Shown here in pieces: positions 4,982 through 25,162 of a DNA stretch of 64,000 nt (its first letter is position 1; every line of letters starts with the position of its first letter). The position numbers and the translations under genes were made by a program. The notes beneath the pieces are model-generated. The model had not been told where the DNA came from. It was given only the letters and a program-made list of their open reading frames with translations, and searched no databases. The stretch is from assembly GCA_029258915.1 (NCBI GenBank), contig JAPDJU010000006.1:101183-165182 (forward strand), given 5' to 3'. Origin of the DNA: Thermoproteota archaeon (lineage in GTDB: Archaea; Thermoproteota; Thermoprotei_A; EX4484-217-1).

Positions 4982-6025
4982 TTTCCAATATTTTTTATGA
5001 ACCCTTAAAGCTTTTTCAATGCTTTTTCTTACGTAGTTCATATTTTCTTTAAGCACTACTTTCTCATAGTATAGAGGATTATCGGTGTTACATGCCAGTA
5101 TAAGGTTCATTATAGCTTTTGGTAGATAGTTTAAAGCATATCCTCCTTCGAGAACAGCTACTATACCTTCTACTTTTCTTCCAAATAGACTGTATATCGC
5201 TTTACCTATGTGCCAGTATGTTTTAAGCGTTAGGTTTATGTCGGTTAATGGGTCTTTATGATGAGTGTCGAAGCCTGCTGAAATAAACAATATTTCTGGT
5301 TTGTAAAGTTCAATAATAGGTAAGGCTATATCTCTAAGCGCTAAAGCATATCCTTTATCGCTAATACCTGGAGGTAAAGGTATGTTTATCGTATAGCCTT
5401 CTCCTTCCTTCTCACCTACTTCTTCAGGGAATCCCGTGCCAGGGTACAGTGTTTTGGGGTCTTGATGCAGTGAGACATAAAGTACTTTATCTGTCGTATA
5501 GAATATTTCTTGGGTTCCATCGCCATGATGAGCGTCTATGTCTAATATAGCTACTCTCTTGTAACCATAATTTTCTATAGCATACTTAGCTGCAATAGCC
5601 ACATTATTAAAAATGCAAAAACCTTTAGCCAAACCCTTATGTGCATGGTGGCCTGGCGGCCTAATAGCTGCAAAACCTATTTTATATCCGCCGAAAAGGA
5701 CTTTCCTAAGAACCTTTAAAGTAGTGCCTACAGCGTATAATGCAACTTCATATGTTCTTTTAGAAACAACAGTGTCTAAATCTCCCAGCGGATGACCTCC
5801 TCCTGCTTCTGAAAACACCTTTATATACTCAACATATCCAGGGTCATGTACTATTTCAACTATTTCTCTGCTAGCTTTCTCGGGCCCTATCAGTTCAAGT
5901 GCTTTATGTTTAAACGTTTTTAGGAAGTTCATGGTTATTTCTATTCTCTTAGGCGACTCAGGATGCGAAAACCCTGTATCATGTTGTTTAAATATTTCAC
6001 CTACAGCGAAAATCACTTTCTCCAT
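4976..6025 (-). CDS. Histone deacetylase-family enzyme (AcuC / acetylpolyamine amidohydrolase-like)
   Basis: Arginase/deacetylase motifs IRPPGHHA, DIDAHHGDGTQ and SAGFDTHHKDPL. Confidence 0.8.
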   Translation of the reverse strand: MEKVIFAVGEIFKQHDTGFSHPESPKRIEITMNFLKTFKHKALELIGPEKASREIVEIVHDPGYVEYIKVFSEAGGGHPLGDLDTVVSKRTYEVALYAVGTTLKVLRKVLFGGYKIGFAAIRPPGHHAHKGLAKGFCIFNNVAIAAKYAIENYGYKRVAILDIDAHHGDGTQEIFYTTDKVLYVSLHQDPKTLYPGTGFPEEVGEKEGEGYTINIPLPPGISDKGYALALRDIALPIIELYKPEILFISAGFDTHHKDPLTDINLTLKTYWHIGKAIYSLFGRKVEGIVAVLEGGYALNYLPKAIMNLILACNTDNPLYYEKVVLKENMNYVRKSIEKALRVHKKYWKL

Positions 6026-6126
6026 ACATCATCACTTCACAGTATATTTCTAATTAATGGTTTATTTTGTTTAAATCTTTATATACCTTTAAGGCTAATT
6101 CTCTTACTTGAACTGGGTGTTCTAAA

Positions 6127-7512
6127 ATGAGCATCAAAGAAATTTCTAAACTAACATCGAAGAAAATATCTAAGAATCTCGAAATTGCTGAAGAATATGA
6201 GAAATATGTTACTAAAGGATTTGCTTTCAAATACTTTCCTGTAGCTATTGTTAAAACTAAGGGGGCTAAAGTTTGGGATGCGGACGGAAACGAGTATATA
6301 GACTTTCTCTCCAGTGCCGCAAAATATAATATTGGCCATACAAACGAATATGTTGTTAAAGCTATTAAAGAGGGGTTAGAAAACTTCATACATTACTGCC
6401 TATACTTCTACCATGAACCAGCAGTTAAGTTTGCCAAGCTCTTAGTAGAGATAACGCCAGGCAACTTTAAGAAAAAAGTTGCTTTCGGATTAAGCGGATC
6501 AGAATCTTGCGATCACGCTATTAAAGCTTCTTTGTTATATACTGAAAGACCGAACATTGCTTCGTTTACATATTCTTATTATGGAACAACCTATGCTACA
6601 CTCTCGGCGTCGGGATCTTTTAGTCCTAAGCTTAGAAAGAGAATACATGCACTACCTAATGTCTACTTCTTCCAATATCCTGACACCTATAGGTGCCCCT
6701 TCAATTTAAGTGAAGAAGAATGCGGCGAATATTATTTAAGCCTAATCGAGGACTTCTTTAAGTCAACAATCGCAGGCGAGTCTTTCGCTATATTTCTTGC
6801 TGAACCTATACAAGGAGATGCTGGAGTGCTTGTTCCACCAAAGAACTTTATGCGAGGATTGCGCAAATTAACTAAAGAATACGGTATAATATTTGCTGAC
6901 GATGAAATACAGGCTGGAATGGCTAGAACGGGTAAAATGTTTGCGATAGAACATTTTAATGTAGAACCTGATCTGATCATAGTAGGGAAGGCTGTGGGCG
7001 GTGGTATGCCTGTTTCTGCTGTTGTTGGTAGGGAGGAAATACTTGATTCAGCGCTGCCACAAACATATTTCTCATCTTATGCTGCACATGCATTATCTCT
7101 ACGAGCTGCAATTGCAACCATAGAGTACATATTAAGAGAAAAACTTGCTGAAAGGGCAGAAAAGCTAGGCAATCACGCTAAAAAAAGATTCAATGAGCTT
7201 AAGGAAAAATATGAAATCGTAGGCGATGTTAGAGGTTTAGGATTGCTTTTAGGCGTAGAAATAGTTAAGAAAAAAGAAACAAAGGAGCCTGACAGGACTT
7301 CAGCACTAAAAATAATTTGGAGATGCTGGGAGAAAGGTCTTTTAATGATGACGTATGGTAAATACGGTAACGTACTTAGAATAGCCCCGCCATTAGTAAT
7401 TAGTAAGGAAGAGCTAGACAAGGCTATAGATATTATTGAAGAATCCATTAAGGACGTTATTGCTGGTAAGGTAACAGATGAAATAGTTAAGTATTTGAGA
7501 GCATGGGAGTAA
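6127..7512 (+). CDS. Class III (PLP-dependent) aminotransferase, 4-aminobutyrate/ornithine aminotransferase-like
   Basis: GLSGSES, the FADDEIQAGMARTGKMFA region and GDVRGLGLLLGVEIV are characteristic of class III aminotransferases. Confidence 0.8.
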   Translation: MSIKEISKLTSKKISKNLEIAEEYEKYVTKGFAFKYFPVAIVKTKGAKVWDADGNEYIDFLSSAAKYNIGHTNEYVVKAIKEGLENFIHYCLYFYHEPAVKFAKLLVEITPGNFKKKVAFGLSGSESCDHAIKASLLYTERPNIASFTYSYYGTTYATLSASGSFSPKLRKRIHALPNVYFFQYPDTYRCPFNLSEEECGEYYLSLIEDFFKSTIAGESFAIFLAEPIQGDAGVLVPPKNFMRGLRKLTKEYGIIFADDEIQAGMARTGKMFAIEHFNVEPDLIIVGKAVGGGMPVSAVVGREEILDSALPQTYFSSYAAHALSLRAAIATIEYILREKLAERAEKLGNHAKKRFNELKEKYEIVGDVRGLGLLLGVEIVKKKETKEPDRTSALKIIWRCWEKGLLMMTYGKYGNVLRIAPPLVISKEELDKAIDIIEESIKDVIAGKVTDEIVKYLRAWE

Positions 7513-7530
7513 TTTTTCCCCATACTTTAC

Positions 7531-10500
7531 TTACATTGTTCTAGCAATTTTACCTAGTCTAGGCTCGTATAGGCTTCCTTCTCTCCTCAGCTGGTCAAGT
7601 ATTTCCTCCACTTCCTTAGCATCTAAACCTGATTTTACGGCTTGCTCTATAACATCTGATTTCTTAACCTCGGCACCAGGGTATTCTTCAAGTTTTTCTA
7701 TGATCTCCATGACTTTCATGATTTTTAATCTTCTGCTGACAGGTTTACCTGTCATAATAATGTCTATATCTATAACCCCGGCTTCAATATCTAAACCTAC
7801 GTCTTTGAAGCTTCTAACCACTAGGTCTATTGCTGCCTTAGCGTCTTCAGCTGTTACTTCGTTTCTTAAAACCATTCTAGCATGTGCTTCTGCAAGCCTA
7901 ATTATTGCTTCCAGTTGTCTAGGTGTTATAGGTATTGGAGCATTTGGGTTTTCACTTGCCTTACTCCTTAAGTTAACGAAGAAATCTGAAATTATTTTTG
8001 CAGCCTCCTCAGTTAATCTTGGTTTCACATATTTCCTAGCATATCCGACATATTTTCTAAGTAACGATGGAGGTATTGGAGGTTTTACACGTTCATACTG
8101 CTTATGAACAGTAAGTATGTGAGACACTAGCTCCTCATCTGTTTGCGGCGCTGGCTTATCTCTCATTACAAATATTAGGTCAAACCTTGAGAGAATTGTT
8201 GGAGGCAAGTTTATGTTTTCAGTAAAGAGCCTGTCTTCAATGTACCTTCCAAACTTAGGATTACCTGCTGCAAGAATAGCTGTTCTAGCGTTAAGCCTAG
8301 CAACAATACCGGCTTTAGCTATACTTATGGTCTGCTGTTCCATTGCTTCATGAATAGCTACTCTATCTTCAGGCCTCATTTTGTCTATTTCATCGATAGC
8401 ACATATCCCTCCATCAGCTAAAACTAAGGCTCCAGCCTCTAAGAAGTAATCCCCAGTGGACTTATCTCTAATCACTGCTGCAGTTAATCCAGCGGCACTG
8501 CTACCCTTACCTGAAGTATATAGTCCTCTAGGAGCAATTCTTGCAATGTATTGGAGAATCTGGCTATTATGTAAGAATAGTAGGCCTAAGCCTCCTACGA
8601 AGTTTTCATTATCTTCAACTGAAATATCATAGACGAACCTATAATGTTCTGGTTCTATTTCTACTAGCGGTATTTCTTTTACTTCTTCTACAGTATCCCA
8701 CATTAAATTCTCATTTTTAACAATTTTCCTTAGACCATAAAGTAGTTCCTCACGTATATCTGTTAGCTGTGTGACGGTTCTAAGTATTTTTAGACCATAT
8801 TTTCTACCGACATAGCCTCTATAGATCTTTCCCCTAAACTCTGCACCTATTGGCCTAAGATCTCCTTTATTTAGACCTGCATTTTGTAGTATCCTTAAAA
8901 GTTCCTTACCTATAGGGACTCTGTCAACGTAGTCTGAAGACTTCTCCCTGGTTTTTCTAAGTTTTAATATTTTCTTTCCAACATTAATGTCGAATGTTTT
9001 CACAAGTTCTTCCATTTTAACAATATTTACTTCATAATACTCAATTTTTCTACCTTTATATTTAGTCTCTTTAATTCTTATTGTATATGGTAAGCCGAGT
9101 CTTGTAAGTAAAATGGTAATTCCATGAACAATGTTAATGCTTGTTGTTGATATTTTAACTTCCTTACACGTGGATTTATCTGAAATCCCTACATAACCAT
9201 CAGAATCTATGAGTCCAGAAAGTAATCCTATAACATAGTCTAAAGGAGCTATGTAAGAGAATTCTGGGATCTTCTTTAACCTTGACATGTAGCCTTTCTT
9301 TTTAACCTTATGCAGTATTGAGCAGTCTAAGTACATGTTTTTCTTGATCCATTCTACGAATTTAGCATCATCTACTATTAGCCTATAATTGTTAAGTTTA
9401 GATTCGTATATTTTACATTTGACTTTAAAGTATTTTTCAACTATGTTCTTTAATCTGTTAAGTGTAGTAGCATTATTAGATGATATTTCTATTCTTTCAC
9501 TACTAGAAATTAAGGTTAAGCTTCCATCTCCAAGAAAGTAGCCGAGGAAATAACCTATGTCTTCGTTTAACTTTATTTCCCCTAAGTTAGTATGTATAGT
9601 TGTTATTAATTGTTTCCTTAATATAGGAGCTTTCTTAAGCAATGGTATTAGTGATTTTTTCTCTAGTGCTTCTAGAGGTTTTACGGGTACTAATAAACCA
9701 TTTTCATACGCTATGAGACTATGGTCCTTTGTTATAATTGCCCTTCTACCATACTTGGTCTTCACAATTACAACTTTCTTGGGAGCTTTATGTCTGATAA
9801 GGCTCTTAATTGGCTTAATTTCAACCTTAAACGTTAAAGGATTAACAGAGAATGTGTAAAGGTTAACTCCTATCTTATTTAGGTTAAGTATTTCTGTTTC
9901 TTCATGTTTCTCAACAGCATATCTATGTTTTTCAATATATTTATCAACTAGTTTACCTATGGGTTCGTAATGTATGTAGCCGTTAGAATCCATGTATAAT
10001 ATCGGCTCACTAAACACTAAGCTCTTTGCTACACCGGGGTCTCCAACGAGGAGAATGTGTATATCTCCTCTTATCCTTGTTCCGTCAGGTAGTTCTTTAG
10101 GAACACCTCCGAAAAGCAGGAGTGCTATTGCTTTCTTAATATGGTTATAGCCGTGAATTGCGGGAGCTATTGACTGTACGATTTTCTCTCTAATTTTAAG
10201 ATCCTTAGCTAGCTCAAGTATTTTCCTTTCATCTTCTTTAGAAATCTCTATTTCTTCAAGAACCTTTTGTGAAACTTCAAGACTATTTGCCTCAATCTTC
10301 ATTTCAAACGTTAGTTTTGTTCCTTTCTTAACAGATCTTTCACCTTTAACCGTTAAAATTCCAACTACTGTAACTCTGTCTCCAGGCCTAGCTTTATCTA
10401 CAAGGTCCTCTAATAGTACGACTTCAACGGACCTAGGCATATGCCCTGGGGGTACATCTTCAGGTTTTTCTTGAACTATGATCTTCTGCATATTAATAAA

Positions 10501-11119: not shown

Positions 11120-11686
11120 CTAATATTCTAAACCTATAGTTTCTTTTACCCAAACTCTAACTATATCTCTTATTGCCCAATACAATACTTTTTCCTCAGG
11201 AGTCATTCTAGCTAGTGCTTCTTTAGGTTCTTCAGTAACTAAGGACAGTACCAAAATTTTCTTTATCCTACTTCTCATGAAACCTCTTAAATGTGTTTCC
11301 AGGTTCCTATATTCCTCTATAATTTCAGATGTAGGTTTTATCTTAAGTAGTGTTTCTAGGTTTTTCAGCATGATTTCCGCTTTTAAATAGAAATCCTGAG
11401 GTATTTCTTGAAGTTGAGAAGGCTTTGTTATTGTTAATGCTTCTAAATATTCTAGGTTAGCTAGTTTCTCAACATCTACTTTTTCATCTTCCGATAGCTC
11501 AACTTTACCTTTTCCAGCTAACATATAGGCTAGCCATCGGGGCAATTCTGTTTCAACATCTTTTCTAAGCTCATATGTTCCTTGAGAATCAACGACCATA
11601 TCTTCTAATGACCTTATCTTTACAGGAAGAGTAAGTAGTTCTCCTCTTGAAGAATCTATGAGTATTTTAAGCATTTCCTTAAACAA
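11120..11686 (-). CDS. GINS subunit (probably Gins23-type), immediately upstream of mcm
   Basis: 188-aa helical protein placed where crenarchaeal gins23 sits relative to mcm; assignment rests on gene order and size rather than a strong motif. Confidence 0.45.
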   Translation of the reverse strand: MFKEMLKILIDSSRGELLTLPVKIRSLEDMVVDSQGTYELRKDVETELPRWLAYMLAGKGKVELSEDEKVDVEKLANLEYLEALTITKPSQLQEIPQDFYLKAEIMLKNLETLLKIKPTSEIIEEYRNLETHLRGFMRSRIKKILVLSLVTEEPKEALARMTPEEKVLYWAIRDIVRVWVKETIGLEY

Positions 11687-11811: not shown

Positions 11812-12792
11812 GTGGCTAGTGTTGAAGTAGAATTATTATGGGCTGAAAAATATAGGCCGAAAACACTAGATGAAATAGTTAATCAGGAAGAAATAGTTAG
11901 GAGGTTAAAACAGTTCGTTAAAAGTAGGAACATGCCTCACTGCTTATTTGCCGGACCTCCAGGTACAGGGAAAACTACTGCTGCCCTAGCGTTAGCCCAT
12001 GACTTATATGGTTCAGGCTATGCACGTTATGTTCTAGAGCTAAATGCTAGCGATGCTAGAGGTATAGATGTTATAAGAACGACTGTTAAAGAGTTTGCTA
12101 GAAGTGTTGTTCCAGGACCTATACCTTTCAAAATAATTATCTTAGATGAAGCAGATAATATGACGGCTGATGCTCAGCAAGCTCTTAGAAGAACTATGGA
12201 GCTTTTCACTTCAACATGTAGATTTATACTTATTGCAAACTATCCTAGTAAAATAATTGAACCAATACAGTCTAGAACAGCATTTTTCAGATTTACACCT
12301 TTAAAGAAAGAGGATGTAGTTGCAAGGCTGAAATGGATAGCTGACCAAGAAAACGTAAAATATGATATGGAGGCTTTGGAAACAATATTTGAGCTTTCTG
12401 AAGGAGATATGAGAAGAGCAATAAACATTCTACAAGCAGCCTCAGCTTTAGGTAGAGTAACTGTTGAAGCAGTATACAAGGTCATAGGTGCAGCACATCC
12501 TACAGAAGTTAGAGAAATGATTAAAGCCGCTTTAGCAGGCAGGTTTACTGAGGCAAGGGAGAAACTTAGAGCATTAATGATAAACTACGGTCTTTCAGGT
12601 GTAGATGTTGTAAAAGCTTTACATAGAGAAATATTCAGTGCTGAACTTAAAATCCCTGAAGAATTAAAGGTCATTATCGCAGACTATCTAGGCGAAGTAC
12701 AGTATAGGCTTGCTGAAGGAGCAGACGATGAAATCCAGTTAAGTGCACTTATTGCACGTTTAGCTATGCTAGGTAAGAGGCTAAGGGTATAA
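11812..12792 (+). CDS. rfcS: Replication factor C small subunit
   Basis: N-terminal KYRP, Walker [14 protein letters not shown]-like [10 protein letters not shown] and sensor motifs; GTG start. Confidence 0.9.
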
Positions 12793-12796
12793 TATA

Positions 12797-14080
12797 ATGT
12801 CTACACGATTACCTTGGATAATAAAGTATAGACCCAAGAAAGTAGCTGAAGTAGTAGACCAAGACAATGCTAAAAAACAGTTTATACCATGGATTAAAGC
12901 ATGGATTGAAGGGAAAAAACAGGAAAAGAAAGCAGCACTACTTTATGGTCCTGCAGGTTGTGGTAAAACGTCTCTAGTAGAAGCAACGGCTAAAGAGTTT
13001 GGTTTAGAACTCATAGAAATGAATGCAAGCGATTTTAGAACAAGAGAAGCTATTGAAAGAATAGCTAAAGTTGCAGCAACAAAGTACTCACTATTCGGAT
13101 TTAGAAGCAAAATAATACTCCTTGATGAAATAGATGGATTAAACGCTATTGCTGATAGAGGAGCACTAAGTGCCGTACTGGATTTAATAGAAGCAACAAC
13201 TCATCCAATAGTTCTTACAGCTAACGATCCATGGGATCCTAAGCTTAGAAGTCTTAGAGACAAGTGTCTCTTAATAGCGTTTAGAAGGCTTCCTAAAAGG
13301 GCAGTTATTTTAATGCTTAAGAGAATATGTGAAAGTGAAAAGCTTATATGCGAATATAATGCCCTATCCTTGATTGCAGATTACGCCGAAGGAGATTTAA
13401 GATCAGCAATAAATGACTTACAAAATGTTGCAAGCATTAGCAAACATATAACATTAGAGGTTACCAAACCAATTTTAGCTAGGAGAGACCGCCAATATAC
13501 ACCATTTGAAGCTCTTAGAAGCCTATTCTTTTCTAAATACGCATGGCAAGCTAAGAAGGCAGTAACCTCTGCCGATATAGACTATGAAACTATGATGTTA
13601 TGGATAGCTGAAAATCTACCCTATCAATACACAGACCCTGAAGATCTATGGAGAGCTTATGAAGCATTAGCAAGAGCCGATGTTTACCTAGGCAGAGTAA
13701 AGAGAACTCAAAATTGGGATTTACTAGCATATGTTTTCGATTTAATGGGAGCAGGTGTAGCATTAGCACGTAGAAAAACTAAGTTTAAGTGGGTGAAGTA
13801 TTCATTTCCTCAAAAAATACTTCTCCTAGCTAAAACCAGGGGGCAAAGAGAAATTAGAGATGCAATAGCAAAAGTATTAGCAGGAGCATTACATATATCA
13901 TCTATTATAGCTAAAAGAGAAGTACTACCATTCTTAAGAATTATTTTCAATGAAAACCCCGAATATGCTGCTAGAATAGCTTTAGGTCTAAACTTAACAG
14001 AGTCAATGATAAAATTCCTTACACCTAAAAGATATCGTGAAGTTTTAAGGGAATTAGCTAAGTTAAAGAAAACTGCTTAA
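12797..14080 (+). CDS. rfcL: Replication factor C large subunit
   Basis: KYRP motif, Walker [11 protein letters not shown] and ILLDEID; follows rfcS by 4 nt. Confidence 0.85.
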
Positions 14081-16010: not shown

Positions 16011-17276
16011 TTATCGCTTATGCGTATATTGTTCAATAAGTTTCAAAACCTCCTTTTCTAACTGATCTAATGGAACATTAAATATTCCTATAAGCGTACT
16101 TCTCCCTCTATAACCTTTGCCCGAAGTTTTTGTATCAATAAGTCCTCGTTGCTTAAGATCCCTTATGTACTCGTAAACTTGAGTATGACCCCTAGATCTT
16201 TCACCGAAAATTTCACATAACATTTCATATTCGCTCTCAACATCACCTATTCTAACATATTGTCTTCCAGAGCGTTTTAAGGCCTTAATCGCTGCAGCAT
16301 ATATGAGTAGTTCATGTAATGGTAGGTGAAGTATCATATCTTTAGCTATTATCATGTAGCTTGAGCTTTCAATTCCAGCTAAGCTTGCATATGCTTTCCT
16401 TAGATGCTCTAATGTAACTCGAGGGCTTCCTTCATAATCTGCAGCTTCACCTGCTCTAAGAAGAAGCTCAATTGCTGCTCTCGCGTTTCCATCACCTCCT
16501 TTATCAACACCCACTATTTCCGCAATAGCGCTGATTACATCTTCTTCAACTGTTCCTTCCCAGAAAGCAAGTTTCATACGTTGTTTTAAAATGTCTTTAA
16601 GTTCTTTTGAAGTATATGGTTTAAAAGCTATCATGTGTCTTAGAAGATAGCTTGATGTTGCCGAGTCTAAACTGTTAAGTTCTGTTAAACTTCTACCTAT
16701 AAGGACAAAGCTTATTCTTTTAGTGTATTCAGGATACTCATCATAGGTTCTTATAAAGAAGTATAGTGCATCGCTACCTGAAACTTTAACAAAGTAATCA
16801 AACTCGTCGAGAGCAAGTATTACGTAAATGTCGTTGTCTTCAAGGTATTCTAATATGGCTGCATAAAGTTCAAATGCTGAAAGACCTCTTTGGGGTAAAG
16901 GTATTCTTAAGTGTTTTGCTATTTCCATTACAACGTTATATACTGTTCTATCTCTATGGCAGTTAACGTGAATATACTGTAGGTTTATTCCTTTACTTTT
17001 AGCTTTAAGTGTAAAAACATTTCCGAAAGTCCTAGCAGTAACAGTTTTACCAACACCTACAGGTCCATGAAGGAAAACTCTCTGACTAATGCTTCCAGGA
17101 CTATAGAGCAAAGGTTTAAAATACTGTGCCAAAAGCCTAATTTGCTCTTCCCTATAAGGCAAGCTTGGAGGAATATATTCCGGATAAAGTTTTTCCTTAG
17201 CTTTAAACACTGAAGGTTTACTTAAAACACCCTCAATAATTTCCTCAGTACCAACAAACTTTTTATACTCACTCAC
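16011..17276 (-). CDS. orc1: Orc1/Cdc6 replication initiator
   Basis: AAA+ Walker A GPVGVGKT, Walker B LDEFD and a C-terminal winged-helix region; GTG start. Confidence 0.9.
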   Translation of the reverse strand: MSEYKKFVGTEEIIEGVLSKPSVFKAKEKLYPEYIPPSLPYREEQIRLLAQYFKPLLYSPGSISQRVFLHGPVGVGKTVTARTFGNVFTLKAKSKGINLQYIHVNCHRDRTVYNVVMEIAKHLRIPLPQRGLSAFELYAAILEYLEDNDIYVILALDEFDYFVKVSGSDALYFFIRTYDEYPEYTKRISFVLIGRSLTELNSLDSATSSYLLRHMIAFKPYTSKELKDILKQRMKLAFWEGTVEEDVISAIAEIVGVDKGGDGNARAAIELLLRAGEAADYEGSPRVTLEHLRKAYASLAGIESSSYMIIAKDMILHLPLHELLIYAAAIKALKRSGRQYVRIGDVESEYEMLCEIFGERSRGHTQVYEYIRDLKQRGLIDTKTSGKGYRGRSTLIGIFNVPLDQLEKEVLKLIEQYTHKR

Positions 17277-17442
17277 TAGTACCCACCATTCTATAGTTTC
17301 GGTAAACCCCTCATAGATTATTTAACGGTTTCTGCCAGTCTCCCCGTAATAATTTTTACCTTATTTAAAATAGACTATTCGCTTAAATGCATACTTAGAG
17401 TATTTTAGTAATTATGAAAACTTCCAAATATTATGAGAACCT

Positions 17443-17556
17443 CTATTCTGGTTCTATGATTACGATTACTTTCACTTTCTTTCCGTGATGTTTCTTTAGC
17501 TTCTCTTGGTACTCCTTCGGCGGGTATATAATATATCTTCCTCCACCATACTTCAT
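17443..17556 (-). CDS. Possible 37-aa AbrB/MazE-like small protein; unsupported short ORF
   Basis: Own translation MKYGGGRYIIYPPKEYQEKLKKHHGKKVKVIVIIEPE loosely matches the swapped-hairpin AbrB consensus; too short to appear in the ORF track. Confidence 0.25.
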   Translation of the reverse strand: MKYGGGRYIIYPPKEYQEKLKKHHGKKVKVIVIIEPE

Positions 17557-17617
17557 TATCTTGGCATCAAAACTGTATACGTAACTCATAGTGTCACCGA
17601 AGAAATAATTTGAGACT

Positions 17618-17632
17618 AAAGCTTATAAATTT
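17618..17632 (+). promoter_or_regulatory. Candidate BRE/TATA promoter for tnpB
   Basis: aaagcttataaattt lies about 30-45 nt upstream of the ATG at 17664 and is embedded in the inverted repeat TGAGAC...GTCTCA. Confidence 0.3.
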
Positions 17633-17663
17633 GTCTCACAAACTTATTATTGGTAGCCAGGGG

Positions 17664-18893
17664 ATGAGGGTCAGAGTAACTGCTAGGGTGAAAGCGGTTA
17701 TCCCTAACCCTAGCTACTATCATAAACTAATAGAGTTCTTAAGGGCATACCGTGATTGGACACAATACGTAGTAAATGAGATATGGAATTTAAACTATAT
17801 ACCATCAATGAAAGAATTACATTATAGATTCTACAAGGTATTGAGGCAACAAGGTTTTAGAGCACATCATTGTCATAAGATTGAGAGGAGAGCTAGAGAA
17901 GTAGTTAAAGCTACTAAGAAGAACAACGGAAGTAAACCAATTCTTAGGAAACTAACAGCTAGACTAGGTTGCCAAGATTACAAGTTAAACATGCAGGATA
18001 AAGTACTAAGAATAGCTGCCTTAAACAATGAATGGGTAGAGTTGGAACTACTATGGTATGAATATCTAGACAAATACTTTAACGATGGATGGAAGCTAAA
18101 GGAAATACTCGTTAGCTACCGTGAGAATGAAATGTGGGTCTACTTCACCTTCGAGAAGGAAGTAGTGCTTGGACAGCCGAGAACCGTTATGGGCGTAGAC
18201 ATTAATTTCAACAATATAACGTACACCATAATCGATATGAATGGTAAGCTCGTAACTATGGGTGTCATACCGTTTAATGGACTGAAGAAAGCGTTGGCTC
18301 ATAGGATTATTGCTGAGAAAATTCAGAGAAAGCATTCTAAGAAGTGGAGGTATGTCAAGGGGATAAGAGAATCCATAAGGAAGCACGGTAGGAGAGCAAG
18401 AAACATTCTTGTTGATTCATGCCACTACATATCAAGGAGGATAGTAGAGATAGCTAAGGAGTACAATACACTAACTGTCCTAGAGAACTTAAACAAACTT
18501 AGAATTAGAGCTAATGGGTCTAGGAGATATAATAAGAAGCTATCGCTGTGGACATACCGCAGAATACAGACCTATATCTACTACAAGGCATTAGTTAAGG
18601 GTGTTCCAGTAATTCATGCTGATCCGAGAAACACTTCTAAAAAATCACCCATAGGGAGAAAGCTTACGTTCAACAACTATAGATGGGCTAAGCTACCTAA
18701 CGGACATATTGTTACTAGAGATGCAGTTGCTTCATGGAATTTAGCACTTAAAGGTCTTAAGTTTCTAACCAGAGATGTGGGGTCTCGTGGTTTCGTGGAG
18801 ACCCCGAAAGCCCCTAACCAGATGCAAACCCAAGAAGGGATGAAGGGGATGCCCGAGCAAGTTTCCAAAATATCTATAATCACCAAAAGATAA
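17664..18893 (+). CDS. tnpB: IS200/IS605-family TnpB-like RuvC nuclease (OrfB) with degenerate zinc finger; no tnpA
   Basis: RuvC-I GVDINF, RuvC-II TVLENL and RuvC-III TRDAVASWNLA all present; the CxxC...CxxC zinc-finger cysteines are absent. ATG at 17664 preferred over the TTG at 17610. Confidence 0.7.
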   Translation: MRVRVTARVKAVIPNPSYYHKLIEFLRAYRDWTQYVVNEIWNLNYIPSMKELHYRFYKVLRQQGFRAHHCHKIERRAREVVKATKKNNGSKPILRKLTARLGCQDYKLNMQDKVLRIAALNNEWVELELLWYEYLDKYFNDGWKLKEILVSYRENEMWVYFTFEKEVVLGQPRTVMGVDINFNNITYTIIDMNGKLVTMGVIPFNGLKKALAHRIIAEKIQRKHSKKWRYVKGIRESIRKHGRRARNILVDSCHYISRRIVEIAKEYNTLTVLENLNKLRIRANGSRRYNKKLSLWTYRRIQTYIYYKALVKGVPVIHADPRNTSKKSPIGRKLTFNNYRWAKLPNGHIVTRDAVASWNLALKGLKFLTRDVGSRGFVETPKAPNQMQTQEGMKGMPEQVSKISIITKR

Positions 18894-18930
18894 AACACGG
18901 GCAACCACTAAGCTAAAAGCATGCTATAAG

Positions 18931-19440
18931 TCATCTACCTACTCTCCGTATGATATCTCCTCTTTTCAAAATAGAAACACAGGCTATATCGCCAACTATT
19001 TCAACTCTAACTATGTATTTAGGGTTCTTGAAGGAAACTTTAGCTTCCAGTTCCTTAGCTATTTTTGCACCTAATGTTCTCTCCACTATTACACTTGACT
19101 CTACAAATCTGCCTCTACGTATACAGTCTACAATAAATGTGTCATTTTTTCTGATATGCTTTTTAGCTAGTTGAAAACCTATTTCAACTATATTATCGAG
19201 GCTTGTTTTAACGCATTTCTCTAAAGGTATAATTTTAAAAATTACAGATGTAGGATTTTTCCGTATAATATCTAATGCTTTAAAGGGACTTAGACTAGTA
19301 AATATTAAAACTACGCCATCAAAACTTGTTTTTATACCATAAGCTTTCTGATCGTGTTCAAAAAGTATGTCAAGTATTTCAACTATTGCTTGGTTCTCTT
19401 TACCCTTACTCGTTGTTACCAATAACTTAGGGTATGACAC
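18931..19440 (-). CDS. THUMP-domain RNA-binding protein
   Basis: 169-aa ORF with a THUMP-like core; convergent with tnpB. Confidence 0.55.
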   Translation of the reverse strand: MSYPKLLVTTSKGKENQAIVEILDILFEHDQKAYGIKTSFDGVVLIFTSLSPFKALDIIRKNPTSVIFKIIPLEKCVKTSLDNIVEIGFQLAKKHIRKNDTFIVDCIRRGRFVESSVIVERTLGAKIAKELEAKVSFKNPKYIVRVEIVGDIACVSILKRGDIIRRVGR

Positions 19441-19600
19441 TATTTAACCCTTTCAAGACTTAAATAAGATAATGAACCTCTACACTAACTTGTACACATC
19501 TTCTAGAAAACTGTTTACTTCCTTCCTAACGAGAGTAAACTATAATAAGGTAACACTTTTCAATTCAACCAGTAAATGTAGAAATTGGATGTAAGAAGCA

Positions 19601-22478: not shown

Positions 22479-23993
22479 ATGAAACTTATTGGTGTTGTAG
22501 GTAGCGGCTCTACAATAGTATACGCTCCTCTCATAGTTTATGAAGAAGCTGAAAAATATGCTAAGGAAGAACAGCTCGTTATTATTGAAGACACATGGAG
22601 AAACATAAAGTTTCTAGGTATTTTAAGAAATGTTAAAAGATATGAGCCATTCTTAAACATATACCGTAGAACGAGTTTCGTAGATAATCCATCGCTTGTA
22701 GAAAGTGGTACATTACCCCATACCGGAGCTTATATTTCAATCATAGGAGCACTTAGAGCTTTTAAGCTAGAGAGTGTAGAAATACCTCCAAATCCTGGTT
22801 CCAGAGTTTACGTTGTAGAGGGTAAAGAAGATTTGAAAGTTAACTTAGGTAGGGGTCTTGTAGTTGGTGTTCATAAGTATAGCGGTGTTGAAATACCTTT
22901 AACCCCTGAAAGCATACCTTTTCACGTAGCTGTTGTTGGAGCTACTGGAACAGGTAAGTCAAGACTTGTAAAAGCACTCATAGATGAAATACTTAACGAA
23001 ACAGGCTATAGAGTTATTGTTTTCGATCATGCAGGAGTAGATTATGTCCCATACTATAGAGACTACGTTGCCCAGGCTTCTAAAATAGTCTTAGATGTTT
23101 CGGTGATCTCTGATCTAATACTTGAGAGAACAGGGCTAGACCGTAGAACATATGAATCCTATATTTTACTTTCAACCCTATGGTATGCTTTTAACAAAGT
23201 ATTTCCAAAGCTGAGTAGAGAGGAAATAGAAAAGCTCGGAGTAGCTGAGCTTCGAAAAGGCTTTACATATAATGTTTTATCTAAATTAGTAAGCTTAATA
23301 GATTATGGTGAATTAACAAGGTTCATGGCGAAATACCCTATAGAATGGAGGTCATCAGAATATAGGGATTATGCTTTAAAAGTAATTGATCTTTTAAAGG
23401 GGAGAGAAAGTGCTAAAGTAAGACTTGGAATATCATTAGATGTTAGATTGGGTGAAGGGTTTTTCAAATCATTAAGCGGAAGAAATGTTCTGCCATCAGA
23501 CATAGTTGATTTAGCGTTTAGACAAAAACTTGTTGTCATAGATTTGAGCATGGAAGACCCTATTGTTAAGAAGTATGTTGTTTCAACAGTAATCAATGAA
23601 GTTTGGAAAAAAGTAGAAGAAAAACAAGAATCAGTAAACATTGTTGCTGTAATCGATGAAGCACACAACTATGCATGTAGATACTGCGGCGAACCACACA
23701 AAGCCATAACTAGAACATCTAGGGAAGGTAGGAAATGGGGTTTCGGATTAATACTTGCAACTCAAAGAGCAATAGACATAGACCCTGAGATTAGAGGAAA
23801 CATTAACACATGGTTCTTCAGTAAACTTCAAACACCATCGGACTTTAACGAAATATCGGCATTCATGAATCTTGCAGGAATAAGCGAATCTTCGCTAGCC
23901 ATTTTGGAGAAAAGAGAATTCTACATAGCAGGCCTCATGAACCCGTTAAGAATTCCTGTTTTAATTAAAGTAAAAGAGGTACCTTTACCATGA
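22479..23993 (+). CDS. herA: HerA-type (FtsK/HerA superfamily) hexameric DNA helicase/ATPase
   Basis: HAS-barrel-like N-terminus, Walker A VVGATGTGKSR, Walker B VIDEAHNY and C-terminal ILATQRAIDID. Confidence 0.7.
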   Translation: MKLIGVVGSGSTIVYAPLIVYEEAEKYAKEEQLVIIEDTWRNIKFLGILRNVKRYEPFLNIYRRTSFVDNPSLVESGTLPHTGAYISIIGALRAFKLESVEIPPNPGSRVYVVEGKEDLKVNLGRGLVVGVHKYSGVEIPLTPESIPFHVAVVGATGTGKSRLVKALIDEILNETGYRVIVFDHAGVDYVPYYRDYVAQASKIVLDVSVISDLILERTGLDRRTYESYILLSTLWYAFNKVFPKLSREEIEKLGVAELRKGFTYNVLSKLVSLIDYGELTRFMAKYPIEWRSSEYRDYALKVIDLLKGRESAKVRLGISLDVRLGEGFFKSLSGRNVLPSDIVDLAFRQKLVVIDLSMEDPIVKKYVVSTVINEVWKKVEEKQESVNIVAVIDEAHNYACRYCGEPHKAITRTSREGRKWGFGLILATQRAIDIDPEIRGNINTWFFSKLQTPSDFNEISAFMNLAGISESSLAILEKREFYIAGLMNPLRIPVLIKVKEVPLP

Positions 23994-25162
23994 TAAGTGA
24001 AGAACGTGTTCCTGAAGAGGTTTTCGAAGAACCAGTAGTTTCTCTAGCTAAAGAAACTGTAGCTTTAGAAGCTAAAAGAATAGCAAGTATTGCTAGTAGC
24101 GAAAGATTAAGGGAAATAAGGAGCAAACTTGAAAGCCAAGGACTAATATTTAGAATTTCCAAAAGAAAACCTCATAAAATATGTAGTGTTGCATTAGATA
24201 CAAGCTTCACGGATCCACCATTAGAACTAACTGGAGGTAAATTAATAACAGTTATAAGATCCCATATATTTTACGGCTGCAGGCCTAAGAAAAATTCTAG
24301 AGCAGATAGTAAAGGGTTTTTAAGATTTGTTCAAGAATTCGAAGATTTAGCTAAAGTGTACTCTAAAATTATTGAGAGAAAATTTGTGATAGAACTCCTC
24401 AGAGATGTTAAAAACGGAAGAGAACAATTAGACCTAGTAATGATTGATGGAGAAATTTTCCCAAGAATACCTCCTGCACTAAGATTTAGAAAGCATGGTA
24501 CAATATCTAGGTTATATCAGAAGTACTTAGATTTAACAGGGGAAATGCTTGAATTAGCAGATGAAACCGATGTAGCGATAGTCGGTATTGTTAAAAGAGC
24601 TTATGGACTAGATATACCTATTGTAGCGGATATGCCGGGTCTAAATATTAATGATAAAGCTCTCGCAACGTACATATTAAATCCTGGGGAATGGATTGAT
24701 CTAAAATCGTACTCTGAAGTAGCTTGCTACATAGAGGAGTTCATTAAGAAACATGAAAATGAACTTCCAAAAAGCACTCTTAGAAGACTTAGGGAGAGAG
24801 ATCGATGGATTGTTGGCGTACTTGAATATGTAGACCGTGCTCCAGATGTTGAGCTTGCCGTTTACAAGTCTTCTACACCAACTTTCTTCATGTTAGCTAC
24901 CAAGGTTGAATTATTTATAAGCCAGAAACTCCTGAAAGAACAAATAATATCTTATCTATCTAACATAACAGGAATCAATGGAGTACCTCATCCAATAGAC
25001 CTTGTAGATTCTATGTGTAGGATAACACCTGACTTGCTCCAAATATTTCAGCAACAACTGTACAAAGAGCTTATGGTTAAGCTTAAAGATCAAAAGTTGG
25101 CTATGAGCTTAGCTGGCTTAATAAACCCTGAAAAAATGTATAGAATAGGGTTTAAGGGTTAG
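23990..25162 (+). CDS. nurA: NurA-like 5'-3' nuclease
   Basis: NurA-type acidic motifs (VALDTSF, DLVMIDGEI); start overlaps the herA stop by 4 nt (ATGA). Confidence 0.6.
   Translation: MISEERVPEEVFEEPVVSLAKETVALEAKRIASIASSERLREIRSKLESQGLIFRISKRKPHKICSVALDTSFTDPPLELTGGKLITVIRSHIFYGCRPKKNSRADSKGFLRFVQEFEDLAKVYSKIIERKFVIELLRDVKNGREQLDLVMIDGEIFPRIPPALRFRKHGTISRLYQKYLDLTGEMLELADETDVAIVGIVKRAYGLDIPIVADMPGLNINDKALATYILNPGEWIDLKSYSEVACYIEEFIKKHENELPKSTLRRLRERDRWIVGVLEYVDRAPDVELAVYKSSTPTFFMLATKVELFISQKLLKEQIISYLSNITGINGVPHPIDLVDSMCRITPDLLQIFQQQLYKELMVKLKDQKLAMSLAGLINPEKMYRIGFKG

Follow-up and report, generated by a model that had tools for sequence, protein, structure and literature searches.

A stretch of 64 kb from the genome of a Thermoproteota archaeon (contig JAPDJU010000006.1), referred to here as the window, was analysed around the open reading frame (ORF) at positions 17664-18893. 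This ORF encodes the TnpB protein of an IS200/IS605-type element and belongs to an uncharacterised archaeal clade. The gene is, with high probability, the tnpB of an intact, recently inserted and non-autonomous tnpB-only (IS1341-like) element of a Desulfurococcales-type hyperthermophilic archaeon, which would act through the RNA-guided cycle of cutting and repair described below. The novelty lies in an independent and recent loss of the zinc finger by a protein that has the canonical RuvC triad and is part of a mobile element; finger loss as such has already been published. In other respects the element is an ordinary insertion sequence of the tnpB-only kind, and current understanding is not overturned. 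It constitutes a natural experiment on the zinc finger of TnpB and Cas12 proteins, in which a young clade dropped the four ligands that close relatives keep, while retaining the triad, the predicted TNB fold, a putative guide RNA, and mobility. The gene and its residues of interest are located as follows:

17664-18893, plus strand: tnpB, 409 amino acids (aa); intact ORF, supported by profile, alignment, AlphaFold2 model and Foldseek.
18198-18200, 18483-18485 and 18720-18722, plus strand: codons of the triad residues D179, E274 and D353, respectively.
18621-18716, plus strand: Cys-less TNB segment, residues 320-351, delimited by alignment with Cys-bearing relatives and supported by model confidence and substitution ratios.

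All three RuvC motifs are present in the 409-aa ORF, namely GVDIN (D179), LENL (E274), and RDAVASWN (D353). The protein matched the Pfam profile of Cas12f1-like TNB domains (PF07282) over residues 298-360, with 36 bits against a cut-off of 26, and the TIGR01766 profile with 58 bits against a cut-off of 32. Solved chains of TnpB and Cas12f were found by the family profile, in an alignment covering RuvC-I, RuvC-II, and the start of the TNB segment. The AlphaFold2 model, with a mean predicted local distance difference test (pLDDT) score of 84.9, was closest in Foldseek comparisons to AsCas12f, ISFba1 TnpB, and ISDra2 TnpB (E-values from 7e-17 to 5e-11, template modelling scores of about 0.5-0.64). 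The protein database contained 540 homologues at E <= 0.001. Residues were counted in the 120 best of these homologues together with the window protein (n = 121, or 115 for D353 and the TNB segment): D179 is conserved in 120/121, E274 in 118/121, and D353 in 113/115, a histidine occupying the last position in the other two.

An initial annotation of this DNA, made from the letters alone, had described a solo OrfB/TnpB-like nuclease with an intact RuvC triad, no zinc-finger cysteines, and no tnpA in the window. The layout, the triad, the missing cysteines, and, as far as 20 scanned window ORFs show, the lack of a tnpA are all borne out; the protein is not solo, as a 48-aa gene on the opposite strand (17443-17589) belongs to the same element. 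tnpB itself occurs in one copy only within the 64-kb window. Public gene calls begin it at TTG 17610 (427 aa); the family alignment favours ATG 17664. Because a TATA box lies about 35 nt upstream of this ATG, the tnpB transcript is probably leaderless.

The CxxC…CxxC finger of the TnpB TNB domain is usual and not universal, and according to Altae-Tran et al. (2023, PMC10691335) it has already been lost in some TnpB branches. In the window TnpB, the stretch between LENL and RDAVASWN (NTSKKSPIGRKLTFNNYRWAKLPNGH) is free of cysteine; there is none in residues 320-352, and the only three Cys of the whole protein are residues 70, 103, and 253. The TNB segment is Cys-free in 113 of the 115 family members, with TSKTSPIGGKLxFINYRWVKLPNGxIVTRDxVASWN as the family consensus around it. 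Other Desulfurococcales relatives, with 34-44% identity, keep all four Cys (TSSACPRCGSRL…KCTRCGFTGDRDVVAC); by their motifs, S328 and L344 mark the former sites of the first Cys in each CxxC, and each knuckle has lost its second Cys by deletion (SPI-G and LPN-G). An exhaustive search of 1.84 billion cluster representatives identified only two full-length 50%-identity clusters of the lineage that are Cys-less (P0121 and P0122). P0129 retains two of the four Cys (TDPYCGTEV…KLCNG) and looks, by its sequence, like an intermediate in zinc-finger loss, and the ASWN motif is already present in P0124, the nearest relative with four Cys. These three observations point to a loss of cysteines that was recent, stepwise, and restricted to a narrow archaeal lineage.

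The Cys-less segment shows no decay. Its ratio of non-synonymous to synonymous substitution rates (dN/dS) could be computed for eight of ten pairs and is 0.05-0.28 in these; in diverged pairs it is 0.05-0.23, close to that of the TnpB core (0.05-0.16 in diverged pairs where computable). The segment is modelled by AlphaFold2 with a pLDDT of about 88-91. The absence of Cys is a feature of the clade, whose TNB segment is under purifying selection, and not a lesion of the window copy.

The limits of the element were established by comparing filled and empty alleles:

17376-18908, plus strand: whole transposable element, 1533 bp, defined by filled versus empty alleles and by between-copy conservation.
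17372-17375, plus strand: AGAC, a motif resembling a transposon-associated motif (TAM), which is flank and not element and is also found in the empty alleles.
17376-17442, plus strand: left end, with two direct repeats ATTATGARAACYTC (17411-17424 and 17430-17443).

In the window, the element is flanked by orc1/cdc6 (16011-17276, minus strand) and by a THUMP-domain gene (18931-19440, minus strand). Five metagenome contigs encoding an identical THUMP protein have the THUMP gene directly beside orc1, separated by a 121-nt spacer from which the insertion is absent. The filled allele was found on three contigs (L065, the one shown, and two similar places), and five of the six places shown are empty. 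The junction in the window reads …AAAATAGAC[TATTCGC … GGGCAACCAC]TAAGC…, with the element in brackets, and that of the empty alleles …AAAATAGAC/TAAGC…, or, written more fully, …TTTAAAATAGAC/TAAGCTAAAAGC…. Comparison of the two junctions places the element at 17376-18908, the exact cut point being ambiguous by a 4-nt ACTA overlap. In agreement with these limits, conservation between copies with aligned flanks begins at GAC/TATT and stops abruptly after CACGGGCAACCAC. A search of the element ends found no terminal inverted repeats, no target duplication is evident at the filled versus empty junctions, and by-eye inspection of the copies revealed no convincing conserved hairpin at the left end. 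The 5' flank of 23 copies ends with GAC in 20, GAT in two, and AAC in one, and position -4 is A or G in 20/23; the TAM-like motif of the family is therefore RGAC, and it behaves as in IS200/IS605 elements.

A genome scan restricted to one genome per species yielded 57 loci, nearly all of them titled Desulfurococcales, Staphylothermus, Thermosphaera, Ignisphaera, or related Thermoprotei metagenome-assembled genomes. Several genomes have three to four copies on separate contigs, and about 16 of the 57 loci are frameshifted or truncated. Staphylothermus marinus F1 is one carrier with at least three copies (P0099, P0100, and P0103). Family members are diverse (about 50-94% identity). The exact window TnpB protein occurs only at the THUMP-orc1 site, and a 94% identical copy, P0001, has other neighbours: a radical-SAM gene on one side, an unannotated gene on the other, and genes for 2-oxoacid dehydrogenase immediately upstream. 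No relative was found among the viral contigs of IMG/VR. The insertion is recent and polymorphic within the population.

The ATTATGARAACYTC repeats at the left end of the window element are 19 nt apart; a more distant subfamily (left ends of L018, L021, L023, L024, and L048) has CTGTGAATA-type repeats in the same place with a spacing of about 11 nt. Either the transposase or the small protein may bind to these repeats. At L002 (5779-9241), two elements stand in tandem, a Cys-less copy (tnpB at 6001-7218) and, after it, a Cys-bearing relative of 33% identity (8009-9241); both have a 48-aa gene of their own.

The second component of the element is a structured RNA predicted at the 3' end of tnpB, immediately followed by the sequence that would serve as guide:

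About 18775-18908, plus strand: omega-RNA-like scaffold, from the last 39 tnpB codons to the right end, derived from consensus folding and pair counts.
18778-18806, plus strand: stem 1.
18811-18848, plus strand: stem 2.
18851-18856 with 18897-18902, plus strand: long-range stem.
18909-18928, plus strand: inferred guide TAAGCTAAAAGCATGCTATA, the flank directly 3' of the right end, which follows AGAC directly in the empty alleles.

Consensus folding across copies revealed three shared 3' stems, with 95% of cells paired versus about 45% when the partners were slid. Changes on both sides of a pair were found in 30 cells versus 8.9 in shuffles, and none of 500 shuffles reached the observed value. 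The structure, on the plus strand, has many G-U pairs. Several properties of the coding sequence argue that the constraint on its 3' tail acts on the RNA and not on the protein: synonymous change is depressed there, dN/dS increases to 0.3-1.7, premature stops occur in several copies, and the C-terminal tail of TnpB is predicted by AlphaFold2 to be disordered. Stems 1 and 2 were detected by nhmmer in the Cys-bearing sister clade as well, from which it follows that the RNA predates the loss of the finger. The window contains a single segment of this type, and the predicted structure has the position and size expected of a TnpB omega-RNA. The length of the guide, about 16-20 nt, was assumed from characterised TnpBs.

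Other features of this RNA were observed. The UGGUU at the tip of stem 1 (18791-18795) is complementary to the AACCA just before the guide (18903-18907), and a pseudoknot between them, like the guide-pseudoknot-stem module of known omega-RNAs, is plausible; covariation gives no test of this pairing because both sides are invariant. At L008 (7176-7229), the loop of about 36 nt between the long-range stem arms GCCCGTGC and GCACGGGC is inverted with respect to the window and other copies, its nhmmer match being on the opposite strand. Either the sequence of the loop is unconstrained or the inverted repeat promotes its flipping. Isolated right-end or omega-RNA-like remnants with no adjoining tnpB, found at L010 (11-130, minus strand) and L013 (5175-5277, minus strand), are likely relics of deleted copies.

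The third component is the small gene divergent from tnpB, together with the promoter region between the two:

17443-17589, minus strand: gene for a 48-aa basic protein (MSYVYSFDAKIMKYGGGRYIIYPPKEYQEKLKKHHGKKVKVIVIIEPE), divergent from tnpB and conserved within the element.
17611-17638, no strand assigned: inverted repeat TGAGAC-N16-GTCTCA centred on the TATA-like CTTATAAAT, a candidate operator.

The 48-aa gene accompanies almost every family copy, Cys-bearing sister clades included, and has been called by gene callers on other contigs. Its product has a pI of 9.6 and is under purifying selection (mean ratio of non-synonymous to synonymous differences, pN/pS, of 0.23); its 54 database homologues are all unannotated. 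The AlphaFold2 model (pLDDT 92) has a beta-hairpin, with strands at residues 10-14 and 18-22, and a helix at 25-32, followed by an extended C-terminal segment. The weak matches of the protein (DUF1905, MazE, VapB, and a RIFT-barrel dimer) hint at a dimerising half-barrel, although membership in that group is not claimed. The spacer between the two genes is 74 nt (17590-17663). An inverted repeat around the TATA box is present in most of 32 copies, with arms whose sequence varies by subfamily, and looks like a candidate operator. The 48-aa protein is a probable transposon-encoded DNA-binding regulator.

The same gene pair might instead constitute a toxin-antitoxin-like module, where a small AbrB/MazE-type antitoxin restrains a TnpB nuclease toxin and the pair persists by addiction and not by homing. 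A proposal of this kind was made by Altae-Tran et al. (2023, PMC10691335) for small AbrB/MazE or ribbon-helix-helix (RHH) genes located upstream of archaeal TnpBs without zinc finger. The linkage of the 48-aa gene to tnpB in both Cys-less and Cys-bearing clades is consistent with it, as are the non-significant matches of the small protein, which include a weak one to DUF1905 and, as top Foldseek ones, MazE, VapB, and a RIFT-barrel dimer. The genes are divergent, however, and form no operon, the 48-aa protein has no extra segment with which to wrap a toxin, and none of the family or fold comparisons places it in AbrB/MazE. A plain toxin-antitoxin module would also have no use for the ends of a transposon, a target motif, or an empty site. 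In addition, the published clade has an Asp-to-His change in RuvC-III and is considered non-mobile, neither of which is true of the window clade. The toxin-antitoxin interpretation is consequently regarded as unlikely.

Slightly less likely still is that loss of zinc crippled cleavage, leaving TnpB as a nuclease-dead or weakened passenger that survives as an RNA- or DNA-binding factor, or as a member of a clade heading to extinction. As such, it could protect or process the omega-RNA, or act as a TldR-like guided repressor; nuclease-dead, RNA-guided DNA-binding relatives of TnpB are indeed known, all four zinc ligands are gone, and many copies are pseudogenes. Some fraction of decaying copies is nevertheless normal for insertion sequences. 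Among the members with a residue at these positions, 98-99% retain D, E, and D, which a binding-only protein would not need, and strong purifying selection acts on both the core and the TNB segment of a diverse clade that still has young insertions. A TldR-like domesticated, nuclease-dead TnpB was rejected as a candidate, given that the triad is kept and the genomic position is not fixed.

A domesticated host gene with a cellular, possibly replication-linked role beside orc1, also considered in the initial annotation, has a negligible probability: although the exact window protein is single-copy and adjoins orc1 and other replication genes, complete transposon ends are retained, homologues occur in unrelated neighbourhoods in multiple and often decayed copies, and the empty alleles already refute it. 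Because of these alleles, the location of P0001 elsewhere, and the restriction of the exact protein to one site, the adjacency to orc1 is considered an accident of insertion and domestication is excluded. The position, which had been called unusual, is a landing site within the 121-nt THUMP-orc1 spacer, 3' of a GAC motif like other copies. What remains favoured of the earlier proposals is an active RNA-guided nuclease of an unusual clade, as suggested by purifying selection on the Cys-less segment, the covarying 3' RNA, and recent mobility.

The surroundings of the insertion are rich in genes of replication and repair, with a GINS-like gene (11120-11686, weak Sld5 match), the small and large subunits of RFC (11812-14080), and orc1; a HerA-like DUF87 ATPase and a NurA-like gene are found a few kb from the element (22479-25162). 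A link of the element to orc1 or to a replication origin was rejected in view of the empty alleles. The element lies 99 nt upstream of the orc1 start codon and may affect the promoter context of this gene.

Several results weigh against the interpretation of the locus as an intact element with a functional, finger-free TnpB. The window protein scored 85 bits with the NCBIfam guided_TnpB profile, under the curated cut-off of 100; one Cys-bearing sister protein, with 91.7, is likewise short of it. The Rfam scan of 17000-19500 gave no match, the window 3' RNA is unexceptional when folded alone (z = -1.05), and the shuffles that served as control for covariation do not keep the phylogeny intact. 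Sequence and fold comparisons yielded no significant family or fold match for the 48-aa protein. The role of the TnpB zinc finger is itself described as unclear (PMC10691335). Finally, no Y1 transposase or serine recombinase match was found among 20 window ORFs (19 of 112-220 aa and one of 80 aa), and no tnpA was seen near any of 70 related loci, to a distance of about 6 kb, in a search of low sensitivity, which employed tblastn with an IS608 TnpA query and regular expressions for HUH and Y motifs. Of the two findings that the initial annotation had named as counting against it, neither was made: the clade is not a well-characterised one, and no tnpA partner emerged from these loci.

The element is thus either non-autonomous or moved by another enzyme, and by default a Y1 TnpA is assumed to act in trans. 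Insertions downstream of RGAC that are both precise and recent, with no tnpA found in the window or near the 70 loci, also led to consideration of a self-sufficient mobile unit, composed of the 48-aa protein, the Cys-less TnpB, and the RNA, that moves without a Y1 or serine transposase; little credence is given to this idea, which ranks below the passenger hypothesis and above domestication. If carrier genomes were found to be devoid of any tnpA, excision and integration would fall to TnpB, the small protein, or host enzymes.

For the tnpB-only element favoured here, a mechanism can be proposed on the cut-and-repair model, which was derived from characterised bacterial IS200/IS605 systems (PMC8612924, PMC10097598). 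Transposition would be catalysed by a Y1 TnpA that is encoded at another place in the genome and acts in trans. TnpB would bind the 3' omega-RNA, whose 3' extension into the flank, TAAGCTAAAAGC…, would serve as guide. By analogy, the complex would recognise and cut RGAC followed by a match to the guide (RGAC+TAAGCTAAAAGCATGC), that is, the empty or excised site, and recombinational repair from the filled copy would then restore or spread the element. The donor copy would be spared from cleavage, because its right end reads CCAC and not RGAC. In the TNB domain, packing of the small and hydrophobic residues S328, G331, L344, and G347 would replace the zinc ion, such that the fold may persist without metal. 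The 48-aa protein would bind the inverted repeat at the TATA box that the two genes share and repress both of them, by analogy with Arc, for which such a role has been shown in bacterial IS605 elements. The filled and empty alleles provide a ready candidate target (RGAC + TAAGCTAAAAGC…) for a finger-free and probably very thermostable nuclease of 409 aa.

Among characterised systems, the closest parallels are with ISDra2 TnpB (Karvelis 2021, PMC8612924; Nakagawa 2023, PMC10097598). Both proteins have about 400 aa, the WED-REC-RuvC-TNB fold (predicted for the window protein), the D-E-D triad, some 32 residues inserted in the TNB domain between beta5 and alpha4, and a disordered C-terminal tail. 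In both elements a structured RNA, a predicted one in the window, runs from the 3' part of tnpB to the right end, and insertion takes place downstream of a short motif, with no inverted repeats at the termini. Unlike ISDra2 TnpB, whose zinc ligands are C331, C334, C351, and C354, the window clade has none of these four. The window element also differs from ISDra2 in its lack of tnpA, in its target (RGAC versus TTGAT), in the extra divergent 48-aa gene, and in its archaeal hyperthermophilic host.

A major TnpB clade without finger, RIIIr-4, is described by Altae-Tran et al. (2023, PMC10691335); it has the RuvC-III Asp-to-His change and includes archaeal TnpBs accompanied by small AbrB/MazE or RHH genes, pairs that were read as non-mobile toxin-antitoxin systems. 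The window clade resembles them in its archaeal origin, the absence of the C4 zinc finger, a very small putative DNA-binding gene upstream, and room for a 3' guide RNA. It differs from RIIIr-4 in its TRD motif, with D353 in 113/115 members, and from the RHH/MazE-TnpB pairs, scored as non-mobile, in that mobility was shown directly for the window family. A gene that fits RIIIr-4 was encountered at L011 (6966-8328), where a family copy is split by a nested 1.36-kb insertion with a different TnpB-like gene (ORF 6992-8116, minus strand, 374 aa); this gene has no zinc finger, its RuvC-III reads GLDRHTASAY (Asp-to-His), and its identity to the window protein is only 25%, indicating that finger loss in the window clade was independent.

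The pairing of a small protein with TnpB, previously read as a non-mobile toxin-antitoxin system, is here found inside a mobile element, and its layout parallels that of Arc, an RHH protein that represses the bidirectional promoter of bacterial IS605 transposons (Moon et al. 2026, bioRxiv 10.64898/2026.09.24.754181). In both cases a tiny protein is encoded on the strand opposite to tnpB with a bidirectional promoter between the genes, to which the window element adds an inverted repeat over the promoter. Unlike Arc, the 48-aa protein is predicted to fold as beta-beta-alpha with an extended C-terminus, and not as the beta-alpha-alpha of a ribbon-helix-helix; it has no sequence or fold match to Arc, and there is no tnpA alongside.

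Zinc-finger loss is not known for the archaeal IS1341-type tnpB elements with 3' sense-overlapping RNAs or for the TnpB of Sulfolobus islandicus. The window family shares with these systems (Gomes-Filho 2015, PMC4615843; PMC10640517) the tnpB-only organisation and an RNA from the 3' end of the gene, the RNA being a predicted one in the window, and is distinguished from them by its 48-aa partner gene.

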